Assembly: GCA_019058445.1 (NCBI GenBank)
Contig: JAHPZA010000010.1
Span: forward strand, 576,001 to 640,000
Reading direction: 5' to 3'
Length of the DNA: 64,000 nucleotides
Source of the DNA: Promethearchaeota archaeon
GTDB taxonomy: Archaea; Asgardarchaeota; Lokiarchaeia; Sigyniarchaeales; SOKP01
In this document: positions 45,051-49,249 of the stretch, piece by piece
How positions within the stretch are numbered: position 1 is the stretch's first letter
Layout of the letters: the number at the start of each line of letters is the position of its first letter
Position numbers and translations under genes: made by a program
Notes under the pieces: generated by a model
Database searches by the model: none
What the model saw: the letters and a program-made list of their open reading frames with translations, nothing else
Told to the model about the DNA's origin: nothing

Positions 45051-47185
45051 TTAGCCTATTTCAACATCCATCTTCTTACGCTCTTCAAGGAGATCGTCAA
45101 CTACAGATGGATCGGCTAAGGTTGTGACATTTCCAATATCAGTTCCAGATGCGATAGCTTTTAAAATTCGACGCATGATTTTACCGCTTCTGGTTTTTGG
45201 GAGAGCATCGGCAAATTGAACGACATCAGGTTGAAATACTGGTCCTATTTCTTTTCGAACATGATTTTTAATATCTCTCTTCAACTCAACTGATTTATCA
45301 ACGCCTTGCATTAAAGTAACAAAACTCCAAATGGCTTGACCCTTAATTTTGTGGGGAAAAGGAGCTACTGCAGCTTCAGCTACCTTCGGATGACTCACTA
45401 TTGCTGATTCGACTTCCATGGTTCCAATTCGGTGGCCTGAAACCTTAATCACATCATCTAATCTGCCTAAAATCCAATAATAACCATCTTCGTCTCGACG
45501 TGCTCCATCTCCAGTATAGTAACATCCCGGATACCTTTCGAGATAAGTCGATTTGAATCGTTCGGTGTCACCCCACACATCTCTTAACATACCAGGCCAT
45601 GGTTGAGCCATACAAAAATATCCTCCTTCATGGGCTTCAGTTACCTCGTCTCCTTCTAAATCAAAAATTATCGGTTTGATTCCTAAGAATGGTAAGCAAC
45701 ATGAACCTGGTTTTGTGGGTGTAGCGGTCGCTATCGGCGTCATTATAAAGCCCCCCGTTTCTGTTAGCTAATGAGTGCGAATTGCAATCATCTTTTGCCA
45801 GTATGTATCAACGATGGGGCATTTTTCCTTTCCTACAATTCTGTGATACCACGTCCATGCCTCAGGGTTTTTCCCAAACTACGCATAAGTTGCATAATTT
45901 ATTGGTTCCCCTACAGTACCTAAGACGCGGATAGAGCTGAGATCATGTTTATTCACAGGCTCATCACCATATCGCATTAACGCTCTTATTGCCGTCGGAG
46001 CTGTATAAAACTGTGTAACCTTGTGTCGCTCAACAATATCCCAAAAGCGGTCCACATTTCCCCCATATGAAGAAATTTCAATTTTTCCTAAAGAATTAGG
46101 ATTTTTAATTTGTATGACTGGGTATGTAGGCACGCTTTCAAACATAAGTGTTGTAGCGCCATTTGCTAATGGTCCATATACAATATAACTATGTCCGGTA
46201 ATCCAACCTATATTTCAGCTAAGCTAAGCGAGTTGCTTTAACTTTCTGCTGTACAATACCAGACATCGCCATCCTTATAATTAAACACCACTCTATGTGT
46301 AAATGAAGTGTAAAGGATATAACCTGCTGTGGTATGTTTCACCCCTTTAGGTTTACCAGTAGTTCCGCTTGTATATAGGATGAATAAGGTGTCTTCAGAA
46401 TCCATTTCTTCACAATCACAATCCTCATTCATACCATCAATGAAATCATGATACCAGATATCCTTGTTGGTGCTTGGAACTTCATTTCCCGTACGCTTTA
46501 CTATTATAACATGCTCTATGGTAGGTACGTCATCGATAATTTGAGCGACATCTGCCATTTTTGGATAGGTTTTTCCCGCTCTAAAGGTCTCATCGCTAGT
46601 AAACAACAATCTCGAATCAGAATCCTCAATCCTATCTTTTACTGCTTCTTTTGAAAATCCGCCAAATACAATAGAATGAATTATTCCAAGTCGAGCGCAG
46701 GCTAACATAATAATTGCCAATTCAGGCAACATAGGGAGCCAAATGGTGACCCTATCTCCTTTTTTGAGCCCAAATTTTTTCATGCCGTTGGCAACTTTAC
46801 ACACTTCTTTTTTTAGCTCGCTAAATGTGAATTTTCTCACTTCTCCGGGTTCATCAGCCTCCCAGATTAGAGCGGTATGGTCGCCTTTCCCTTTTTTGAT
46901 ATGGCGATCGATACAATTATAGCATACGTTTAATTTTCCGCCAACAAACCATTTTCCGGGAAATAAGTCCGTTTTTTCCCAAACTTTATCGTAAGGTTTG
47001 AACCAGTCTAAAGATTTAGCTTGCTCGCCCCAAAACCCCTCCATATCATCAATACTTTGCTGCCACAGTTTTTTATATTCTTCGAAAGACATCCCGGTCT
47101 TTGCATAATCAGGATTTAAATTAACCGGATTGAAAACACGTGTTTCTGTAAGAATCGATTCCATTTTTTTATCTTCTTCTGACAT
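45051..47185 (-). CDS. acs: Acetyl-CoA synthetase (AMP-forming), 5 exons / 4 putative BHB introns; exons 46246-47185, 46118-46213, 45901-46057, 45794-45870, 45051-45763; spliced product 660 aa
   Basis: [68 protein letters not shown]. Exon sum is 1983 nt (661 codons) with no internal stops after splicing. Confidence 0.9.
45764..45793 (-). other. acs intron 4, 30 nt, BHB-type, contains in-frame UAG
   Basis: mRNA: CU GGCA AA|A GAUGA...UCAUU AGCU AA|C AG; removal gives UGG CAA ACA GAA (WQTETGG). Confidence 0.85.
45871..45900 (-). other. acs intron 3, 30 nt, BHB-type, contains in-frame UAG
   Basis: mRNA: ACCA AU|A AAUUAUGCA-ACUUA-UGCGUAGUU UGGG AA|A; removal gives GEPINPEAW. Confidence 0.85.
46058..46117 (-). 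other. acs intron 2, 60 nt, relaxed BHB-type, in-frame with no stop
   Basis: mRNA: ACCC AG|U CAUA...UAUG GGGG AA|A UGUGG; removal gives CCA GAU GUG GAC CGC (YPDVDRFW). Confidence 0.75.
46214..46245 (-). other. acs intron 1, 32 nt, BHB-type
   Basis: mRNA: UGUA CAGC AG|A ...hairpin... GCUG AA|A UAUA; removal gives GCA GAU AUA GGU UGG (ADIGW). Confidence 0.85.
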
Positions 47186-47341: not shown

Positions 47342-49249
47342 ATGGAAAGAATTGATTTATTAGATAAAGACTGGAGAGAGAAATGGAAAAATAAGGAAAT
47401 AACACCCAAAGAGGCAATAGGGAAGATTATTCCTGGAAATCGGGTATTTATTGATACTGGGTGTAGTGAACCGCAGGCATTAACAGATGAATTAATCAAA
47501 CAATCTGAAAAATTGATAGATACTGAGTTAATTCACTTTCTCACAATTTATCCTCAAAAATATTTCAAAGATAAGGCAGAAGATTTGTTTAGGCATAATG
47601 CGTTTTTTATAGGGAAAGCTCTCAGAGAGGAAATAAATAAAGGACAAGCAGATTATACACCTATAATAGCCAGTGAAATTCCTTCATTATTTCTTTCAGG
47701 TCGTAAATATTGTGATGTTGCCTTAATTCAAGTAACTCCCCCGGATCGATATGGTTTTTGCTCATTTGGAGTTAATGTTGATGTTGCTAAGCCAATTGCC
47801 CAATCAGCGTACATTACTATTGCCGAGATAAATCCCCAAATGCCCAGAACATTGGGAAATAGCTTCATCCACATGAAAGAAATTGATCATTTTGTGTATA
47901 ACGACACACCTCTCATAGAATTCCAGTTTAAGGAAAAGAATGAGATTATTGAGAGAATAGGAAAAAATGTAGCAGGTATCATTCAAAATAAATCAACAAT
48001 CCATATTGGTAATGGATATATTCCGAATGCTTGTTTAAATTACTTATTTGAAAAAAGAGATCTTGGAATGCACTCTCATTTTATAACTGATAATATCATA
48101 CATTTAATAGAAAACACTGTTTTAACATGTAGGAAAAAGAACTTCCATCCTGAAAAGATTATTACTAGCTACGCGTTAGGAACAAAAAAGCTATTTGATT
48201 TTATCAATAATAATCCTTACATTGAGTTTTATCCAACAGATTACATCTGCAATCCCCGATATATCGCAATGAATAAAAACATGGTTTCAATAAATCAAGC
48301 ATTACAAATCGATTTAACAGGCCAAGTAAATACTTCAACAAAAGGATACAAATTTCATACTGGAATTGGAGATACTGTGGATTTTATGAGAGGGGCAGCG
48401 CTTTCTAAGGGTGGAAAGCCAATAATTGTTTTACCTTCAACAAGAAAAGAGGGAACGGAATCAACCATAGTTCCCCATTTAGACGAGGGAGCGGGAATAA
48501 TTCTTTCTCGAGCAGATATTCACTATGTTGTAACCGAATGGGGAGTAGCATATCTTCATGGAAGGACAATTCGAGAAAGAGCCTTAGAATTAATATCTAT
48601 TGCCCATCCTGATTTTAGACAGTCTTTATTAGATCAAGCGAAAATATTGAACTACATTTACTCTGATCAATTATTACCCTGCGATGAGGAAGGAAATATT
48701 TGTATTTATCCAAAACACTATGAGACCTATTTTGTGACTAGAGCTGAAGAAAAAGTTATTGTACGCCCGGTAAGGACAACTGACGAACCTCTCTTGAAAA
48801 AATTGTATTATTCTTTAGATGAAAGAGATAGATATTTGAGGTTCTTTGAGGTGAAAAAGGAATTTACACATTCAAAAACACAACATGAGGTTAATATTGA
48901 TTATGAGAATATCTTTTCAATTGGAGCTTTTGTAGGAGATATTACAAATCAGGAAATGGTGGGAAACGCATCTTATTACTATAATCCCCGAAATAATATG
49001 GCAGAATACAGCTTTTTAGTTCGAGAAGATTATAGAGGTAAAGGAGTGGGCTCTTTTCTCTATCACCACTTAATCATCATAGCAAAAGAAAGGGGAATAA
49101 AAGGATTTTATGGAACTATTCACATCCAAAATAAACAGACGGTACAGATCATAAGGAAAGGAGGGTACACAAAAATTACACCTCCAGAAGCAGGAGAAAA
49201 AGAATTATTTTATGAAGTTTTTTTTGATAAAGACAATTCAAATGAATAA
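47342..49249 (+). CDS. Acetyl-CoA hydrolase/CoA-transferase fused to a C-terminal GNAT N-acetyltransferase
   Basis: DVALIQV.PPD..G.CS.G, EIN..MPRT.G, ID.TGQ, G.GD..DF.RGA..S.GG, VVTEWG.A.L.G; GNAT: YLRFF, AEYSFLV..DYRGKGVG. Confidence 0.9.
   Translation: MERIDLLDKDWREKWKNKEITPKEAIGKIIPGNRVFIDTGCSEPQALTDELIKQSEKLIDTELIHFLTIYPQKYFKDKAEDLFRHNAFFIGKALREEINKGQADYTPIIASEIPSLFLSGRKYCDVALIQVTPPDRYGFCSFGVNVDVAKPIAQSAYITIAEINPQMPRTLGNSFIHMKEIDHFVYNDTPLIEFQFKEKNEIIERIGKNVAGIIQNKSTIHIGNGYIPNACLNYLFEKRDLGMHSHFITDNIIHLIENTVLTCRKKNFHPEKIITSYALGTKKLFDFINNNPYIEFYPTDYICNPRYIAMNKNMVSINQALQIDLTGQVNTSTKGYKFHTGIGDTVDFMRGAALSKGGKPIIVLPSTRKEGTESTIVPHLDEGAGIILSRADIHYVVTEWGVAYLHGRTIRERALELISIAHPDFRQSLLDQAKILNYIYSDQLLPCDEEGNICIYPKHYETYFVTRAEEKVIVRPVRTTDEPLLKKLYYSLDERDRYLRFFEVKKEFTHSKTQHEVNIDYENIFSIGAFVGDITNQEMVGNASYYYNPRNNMAEYSFLVREDYRGKGVGSFLYHHLIIIAKERGIKGFYGTIHIQNKQTVQIIRKGGYTKITPPEAGEKELFYEVFFDKDNSNE

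Follow-up and report, generated by a model that had tools for sequence, protein, structure and literature searches.

A stop-free, in-frame 60-nucleotide segment of an Asgard archaeal acetyl-CoA synthetase gene is probably a tRNA-type mRNA intron

In a 64,000-nucleotide stretch of contig JAHPZA010000010.1 from a Promethearchaeota archaeon (the window; coordinates are counted from its first letter), the gene acs, encoding the AMP-forming acetyl-CoA synthetase, is split over several open reading frames (ORFs), one of which runs without interruption through an apparent insertion of 60 nucleotides (nt). The question is whether these 60 nt, denoted i2 below, are translated as a part of the enzyme or removed from the mRNA. 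We consider it very probable that i2 represents a bulge-helix-bulge (BHB) intron of the tRNA type, spliced from the mRNA by the endonuclease EndA and the ligase RtcB, and that it is in frame by chance. Compared with 15 aligned orthologues from its genus and family, this copy of acs has four inserts, of 32, 60, 30, and 30 nt, and the gene without them is uninterrupted, comprising 1983 nt and encoding 660 amino acids. Since its exons are under strong purifying selection (dN/dS of 0.017 in the comparison with the orthologue in genome G002), acs must, on this sequence evidence, be a live gene that needs splicing at least at introns 1, 3, and 4. No second close Acs match was found in the genome, which is a metagenome-assembled genome (MAG) of 4.6 Mb, 92.6% complete, with a GC content of approximately 31%.

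Read in the acs frame, i2 (minus strand, 46117..46058, UCAUACAAAUUAAAAAUCCUAAUUCUUUAGGAAAAAUUGAAAUUUCUUCAUAUGGGGGAA) encodes 20 amino acids and contains no stop codon, and the remaining two frames contain one and three stops. Its GC content is 25%, compared with 40.7% in the acs exons. Written as a BHB, the i2 site has the elements h CC[U]ACA(U), H ACCC, bulge AG↓U, h' CAUA...UAUG, H GGGG, bulge AA↓A, h UGUGG, where the arrows mark the predicted cuts; this is a relaxed rather than a strict form of the motif. The central helix H consists of three C-G pairs, which are invariant in four alleles carrying the insert (see below), and the outer A.G is unpaired. The exon-exon helix h (5–6 bp and a 10-bp distal extension) forms with pair probabilities of 0.98–1.0, and the closing stem h' with probabilities of 0.6–0.7; both this stem and hairpin 1 of the insert (Table 1) are present in the minimum free energy (MFE) fold as well as in the centroid fold.

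The cuts at AG↓U and AA↓A would yield the junction CCAG↓AUGUGG, encoding YPDVD, and the product YPDVDRFW. The cut positions are unambiguous because the bases flanking the two cuts differ. The cut sites of the BHB fall on the boundaries of i2 that the comparison with 15 intron-less orthologues gives independently of the motif. Among random pairs of sites spaced by 60 nt in this genome, motifs with at least three Watson-Crick pairs in H, at least four in h', and at least five in h have a frequency of 4.2e-5. The first-pass annotation of this DNA had proposed an in-frame, stop-free candidate intron bounded by a BHB motif at 46058–46117, AT-rich, with a UCCUAA/UUAGGA hairpin and a CAUA/UAUG closing stem, whose removal at the same two cuts would restore the consensus YPD; the coordinates proved exact and each of these features was recovered. 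Other identities of the 60 nt were also considered. A twintron (60 = 2 x 30) was rejected, as no convincing inner BHB of approximately 30 nt was seen, and so was a copy of a repeat or a mobile element, as genome-wide matches to the 60 nt are chance AT-rich ones only. The Rfam search produced nothing at the gathering level for i2 and one sub-threshold chance match (HIV_FE, E 0.65), and no C/D-box-like motifs were seen in i2 by eye.

The spliced reference was aligned with 49 distinct acs loci of Promethearchaeota; the insert is present in four of them, and the 45 others lack it. In 118 of the 120 closest full-length Acs proteins, whose lengths are 656–661 amino acids, YP and RFW are separated by exactly three residues; DVD is the state at that site in 100 of the 120, the same residues that the predicted junction restores. 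As the first-pass annotation had stated, the insert does not belong to the typical Acs segment. No longer proteins containing the insert peptide were found by the protein search.

Three public gene calls, equal in length to the 88-amino-acid ORF that bears the insert, were found in a search with this ORF; each contains a variant of the 20-amino-acid segment. The nucleotide records of loci with the insert represent three further alleles, one in loci L192–L195 (four ENA, JGI, and Logan records), the second in L196, and the third in L197/L198. All of them carry the four acs introns at identical positions, including the 60-nt insert. Introns 1, 3, and 4 accompany i2 in every allele bearing it, and each of these three contains a frameshift or a stop and is untranslatable. 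The same records bear on the explanation that i2 is an assembly or binning artefact, or that the contig is chimeric. In its favor, the sequence is of MAG origin and the best-matching run is possibly the source of this very DNA. However, an identical 28-kb source contig with the depth of 26 covers i2, 44 nt of it are also covered by a contig of a different sample from that study, and homologous inserts exist in independent ENA, JGI, and Logan assemblies, which leaves an artefact with a negligible probability and effectively refutes it.

The four alleles of i2 differ at 14 of the 60 positions, and 12 of these differences lie within intron positions 6–37; the remaining two are in the loop of hairpin 2 (position 43) and at a wobble pair in h' (position 52). 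The 5' end UCAUA and the H pairs are unchanged, and the h' pairs are kept, the only change in this stem being a single A to G that retains a U.G pair. The last 23 nt, comprising hairpin 2, the 3' half of h', the intron half of H, and the bulge, contain one loop change and one pair-preserving A-to-G change only. In hairpin 1 the inner four pairs are retained in all alleles, and the outer U-A pair is replaced by A-U in one of them and lost in two. The exon-exon helix has 16 standard pairs out of 16 in each of the four intron-bearing alleles; in the intron-less alleles the median is approximately 12 of 16. Since the intron-less allele L017 also reaches 16 of 16, it may be that a proto-splice site was ready-made here. 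The intron-bearing alleles use the codons CGC for Arg and TAC for Tyr in this helix, and most intron-less alleles use AGA or AGG and TAT.

Substitutions in i2 do not follow the codon structure. In pairs of the four alleles, the proportion of nonsynonymous differences (pN) in i2 read as codons is 0.08–0.16, compared with 0.013–0.044 in the exons, and the proportion of synonymous differences (pS) is 0–0.25, compared with 0.44–0.67. The "synonymous" positions of i2 are 3–10 times more conserved than those of the exons, and the "nonsynonymous" ones change 3–5 times faster. The ratio of synonymous to nonsynonymous changes differs between i2 and the exons in five of the six pairs (Fisher p from 6e-7 to 0.005, the pairs not being independent), and the conservation of the "synonymous" sites far exceeds the exon rate (p down to 3e-6 gene-wide and 2e-4 locally). 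Variable sites at codon positions 2, 3, and 1 are in the ratio 7:5:2. Alleles with approximately 97% identity in the flanking exons differ from each other in 4–8 of the 20 residues of i2, pN/pS being about 1 or more. Overall, i2 diverges by 6–10 of 60 nt, as much as introns 1, 3, and 4 do between the same alleles. A protein-coding insertion would be expected to combine purifying selection on its amino acids with neutral synonymous sites, and i2 does not show this pattern. Because i2 evolves codon-blind with an invariant BHB core, the constraint is at the nucleotide level and centers on the BHB elements, which points to selection acting on the RNA rather than on the protein. The first-pass annotation had named conservation of the insert as protein in related Acs enzymes as an argument against an intron; the insert does occur in relatives, but it is not conserved there as protein.

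These observations make it very improbable that i2 is an ordinary lineage-specific surface loop of 20 amino acids that is never excised, with a fortuitous BHB-like fold aided by the pre-existing complementarity of the exons. Such a loop is compatible with a frame that stays open and a length that stays the same across four alleles, with the high exon-exon complementarity already present in the intron-less alleles, and with the folding z-score of the region, which is just -1.57. On the other hand, it is at odds not only with the inverted pattern of codon substitutions, but also with the exact correspondence of the invariant parts of i2 to the BHB elements, with the low frequency of such a motif in random site pairs, with the confinement of the insert to alleles that also bear introns 1, 3, and 4, and with the difference in the GC content between i2 and the exons.

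The open reading frame could also have a regulatory meaning. In this explanation, which we hold to be improbable, i2 is partly retained, and the mRNA in which introns 1, 3, and 4 are spliced and i2 is not would encode a 680-amino-acid Acs isoform with a 20-residue loop, possibly regulatory. Retention agrees with a stop-free insert of a length divisible by three in all four alleles, with the short h' and a central helix able to slip its register, with the location of the site between a predicted strand and a predicted helix in a low-confidence model, and with a longer loop in some distant Acs homologues. An even less probable extension is that the open frame is kept by selection because the removal by EndA is incomplete, the ratio of the 660- and 680-amino-acid isoforms being set by the splicing activity; if true, an Asgard archaeon would be using its tRNA-splicing machinery for alternative splicing. 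Retention is, however, opposed by the lack of protein-level constraint described above and by the three-residue loop in nearly all close homologues. Moreover, 13.6% of shuffles of the i2 composition stay open, and a per-substitution estimate gives a chance of 0.22–0.27 that approximately 16 later substitutions keep the frame open. The open frame thus needs no selective explanation. Neither does the constant length distinguish i2, since introns 1, 3, and 4 have it too.

Partial retention had been suggested by the first-pass annotation on the grounds that the BHB of i2 is the least perfect of the four, and this ranking did not hold. Five loci show the A.G mismatch at the outer H pair in intron 3 as well, and locus L050 shows it in a neighboring intron. 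The exon helix of intron 4 is far shorter at the bulge (h of 2 compared with 5 in i2), although the 4-bp h' of i2 is the shortest. In the four alleles of i2 the exon helix is fully paired, and both H and h' are kept. By the helix counts, the motif of i2 is not inferior to those at introns 3 and 4.

Several observations nevertheless weigh against i2 being a spliced intron. The central helix has only three Watson-Crick pairs and an A.G, and both the thermodynamic ensemble and the MFE fold favor a register slipped by one G, which is possible because five Gs are present. The stem h' has only 4 bp and closes a 45-nt loop with two hairpins, i2 is twice as long as the usual 30 nt, and the folding z-score of the region cited above is modest. 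Covariation within i2 is too sparse to count, amounting in four alleles to one double change in the inner hairpin and one wobble change. The length of 60 nt and the open frame in all four alleles would also fit a translated segment, with the chance expectation given above. More distant Acs homologues have 4–13 extra residues in the loop, so that an insertion here is structurally not excluded and the loop length is not absolutely fixed; a poor AlphaFold model of an intron-less orthologue (mean pLDDT of 44.5) weakly suggests that the site falls in a strand-loop-helix turn. The protein collection contains no near-identical full-length product of a spliced or intron-less gene, the best match being 89% identical. 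Finally, a second EndA subunit was not found in the MAG by phmmer or Pfam searches.

Still, i2 most plausibly behaves as a BHB intron, and the following mechanism can be proposed. The upstream exon segment CC[U/C]ACA...ACCC would pair with UGUGG of the downstream exon and with GGGG at the 3' end of the intron, and the intron would close on itself by CAUA/UAUG. Two 3-nt bulges, AG↓U and AA↓A, would be presented across the central helix of 3 bp and an A.G. EndA would then cut both bulges, and RtcB would join the exons to produce ...PTYP-D-VDRFW.... The length divisible by three and the absence of stops would be accidental, and would create the apparent 20-amino-acid insertion in ORF tracks and public gene calls. 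We infer the cutting and joining of i2, as well as their completeness, from the sequence, with cbf5 (PMC2738675) and the leader of Haloferax HVO_1309 (PMC7714728) as models for cutting in the two bulges and ligation by RtcB. Only one EndA homologue (G000:C9:770310-770918, 202 amino acids, with the catalytic and N-terminal domains, PF01974 and PF02778) was detected in the genome, in spite of its numerous relaxed BHB introns, and an RtcB gene is present. The known EndA enzymes of broad specificity are two-subunit proteins, (alpha-beta)2; in this MAG a partner subunit may either be too divergent to detect or be encoded in the ~7% of the genome that is missing. According to a recent preprint, most Asgard genomes have two EndA paralogues.

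In the tree of the whole gene, intron-less G002 and G007 alleles are nested among the intron bearers. The G007 allele (L003) groups with the intron-bearing L192, and the approximately unbiased (AU) test rejects a clade of bearers with p of 0.0006. For the intron-bearing segment alone, the monophyly of the bearers is not rejected (p of 0.18). In the comparison over acs reference positions 0–1154, L003 (G007:C219) is nearly identical to L192 for most of the first 500 nt, where the two differ at 1–4 sites per 90 nt. A patch of L003 at reference positions 495–630 is closer to G002. From position 900 on, where introns 1 and 2 are missing from L003, the two alleles have 11–19 differences per 90 nt, a divergence like that from another species. 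This mosaic points to recombination between intron-bearing and intron-less alleles. Since L003 is mosaic and the bearer clade is not rejected at the segment level, the four introns travel together on a recombining segment. Intron loss mediated by cDNA (reverse transcription) was considered and dropped, as the tree pattern reflects recombination of alleles and gives no evidence for such a loss.

The acs gene is a hot spot of introns, and its other introns provide the context for i2. BHB mini-introns of relatives are found at reference positions 940, 1042, 1084, 1193, 1270, 1431, and ~1513. The introns at 1193 and 1270 are spread across several acs clades, whereas i2 is restricted to the four alleles. 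The intron at 1270, which is the site of intron 4, is present in nine aligned loci; in 7 of the 9 pairs of its h' hairpin both sides change, and 91% of hairpin cells are paired. Five of these loci have a stop in it and the other four do not, the covarying hairpin being the same. As homologues at this site vary in having a stop, the stop-free status is incidental in this class of introns. The intron 1 site is also occupied in L048, L192, L196, and L197, and in this copy the intron introduces both a frameshift and a stop. Intron 3 has homologues in L015, L032, L046, L048, L192, L196, and L197, with an A-U pair of H replaced by G-C. Seven mini-introns were observed in the acs gene of the metagenome contig L048 (Ga0180438_10030581) and five in that of the metagenome contig L050 (Ga0180438_10056895), most of them 30 or 33 nt long, in frame, and stop-free. 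Both loci have a nearly canonical 33-nt stop-free in-frame BHB intron 6 nt downstream of the i2 site (L048:2518-2570).

The consequences for gene annotation, anticipated in the first-pass remark that stop-free BHB introns escape it, are visible in public records. The gene calls P0001–P0003, annotated as AMP-binding fragments, translate i2 as protein, and two calls from relatives, P0178 and P0222 (573 amino acids), treat four in-frame introns as coding sequence and terminate in the frameshift caused by a fifth intron, of 32 nt. Between P0178 and P0222 the peptides encoded by the inserts are strongly different, and the flanks are nearly identical. The scan of the genome for strict canonical BHB motifs with introns of 24–39 nt yielded 448 matches, compared with 460 in the reversed-sequence control, that is, no excess. 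A motif scan alone cannot count hidden introns here, as real mini-introns are too relaxed or too few.

Table 1. Parts of the acs gene and structural elements of the i2 site (window coordinates; arrows mark predicted cuts or the predicted junction)
Feature	Coordinates	Strand	Description
acs	45051..47185	-	AMP-forming acetyl-CoA synthetase; split over several ORFs; five exons
Exon 1	46246..47185	-	940 nt
Intron 1	46214..46245	-	32 nt; canonical hBHBh': UGUA CAGC AG↓A ... GCUG AA↓A UAUA
Exon 2	46118..46213	-	96 nt
Intron 2 (i2)	46058..46117	-	60 nt; phase 1, in frame, stop-free
Exon 3	45901..46057	-	157 nt
Intron 3	45871..45900	-	30 nt; in-frame UAG; relaxed BHB ACCA AU↓A ... UGGG AA↓A
Exon 4	45794..45870	-	77 nt
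Intron 4	45764..45793	-	30 nt; in-frame UAG; within DTYWQ↓TETGG
Exon 5	45051..45763	-	713 nt, stop included
Exon-exon helix, 5' strand	46125..46142	-	proximal CC[U/C]ACA 46125-46129; distal UUUGAAAGCG.G 46131-46142
H-a, exon half of central helix	46120..46123	-	ACCC; then 5' bulge AG↓U, 46119-46117
h'-a	46113..46116	-	CAUA; pairs with h'-b UAUG, 46064-46067
i2 hairpin 1	46086..46101	-	UCCUAA UUCU UUAGGA; from the fold
i2 hairpin 2	46068..46080	-	UGAA AUUUC UUCA; stem invariant in four alleles
H-b, intron half of central helix	46060..46063	-	GGGG; then 3' bulge AA↓A, 46059-46057
Exon-exon helix, 3' strand	46040..46056	-	UGUGG A CCGCUUUUGGG
Predicted spliced junction		-	...UACCCAG↓AUGUGGAC...

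A gene encoding a 635-amino-acid protein (47342-49249, plus strand) is transcribed divergently from acs and combines acetyl-CoA hydrolase/transferase domains with a GNAT acetyltransferase. This fusion gene adjoins acs in the L192/L193 contigs as well, so that the two form a conserved pair of acetate-metabolism genes.

EndA-type splicing inside an archaeal coding region is documented in the searchable literature only for cbf5. In Crenarchaeota, the cbf5 pre-mRNA contains a BHB-type intron removed by the tRNA splicing endonuclease and a ligase (Watanabe 2002; Yoshinari 2006; Yokobori 2009, PMC2738675), and in 2020 it was still listed as the sole coding-region example (PMC7714728). [quoted passage not shown] However, cbf5 is an informational gene of thermophilic Crenarchaeota with one intron, whose splicing was shown experimentally, whereas acs is a metabolic gene of an Asgard archaeon that carries four introns in a span of 330 nt, with as many as seven in a relative, and their splicing is predicted; furthermore, i2, unlike the cbf5 intron, is in frame and stop-free. 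Another EndA substrate in an mRNA is a 46-nt BHB intron in the 5' untranslated region of HVO_1309 from Haloferax volcanii, confirmed by circRNA-seq and in vitro cleavage (PMC7714728). It is similar to the 60-nt i2 in size, but is located in an untranslated leader and interrupts no reading frame.

The non-canonical introns present in tRNA genes of Asgard archaea and Thermoproteales (Marck and Grosjean 2003; bioRxiv 10.64898/2026.10.13.758758) share with i2 the motif in its relaxed form and presumably the enzymes, as well as repeated gains and many annotation misses. The exon part of the motif is provided there by the tRNA fold, whereas in acs i2 the exon helices are formed by codons, via their synonymous positions. 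Compared with the mini-introns of 29–33 nt at other acs sites and in other genes of the same genome, i2 has the common bulges AG↓N and AA↓N; it matches intron 3 in its central helix of an A.G and 3 bp and shares the phase of introns 1 and 4. It differs in being twice as long, with a 4-bp h' that closes two hairpins instead of one 9-bp hairpin.

One of the four acs introns in a central metabolic gene of an Asgard archaeon would be invisible to all ORF-based screens. Since the common length of mini-introns is 30 nt, which is divisible by three, and about half of such AT-rich sequences are stop-free, a large share of them must be hidden. Therefore the current intron counts in Asgard archaea are likely underestimates, and public protein catalogues would contain false insertions. 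Codon-blind substitution combined with an invariant BHB core could serve as a practical test for hidden introns that requires no RNA data. These observations also concern the question of how archaeal relatives of eukaryotes could have protein genes rich in introns, with a machinery unrelated to the spliceosome.

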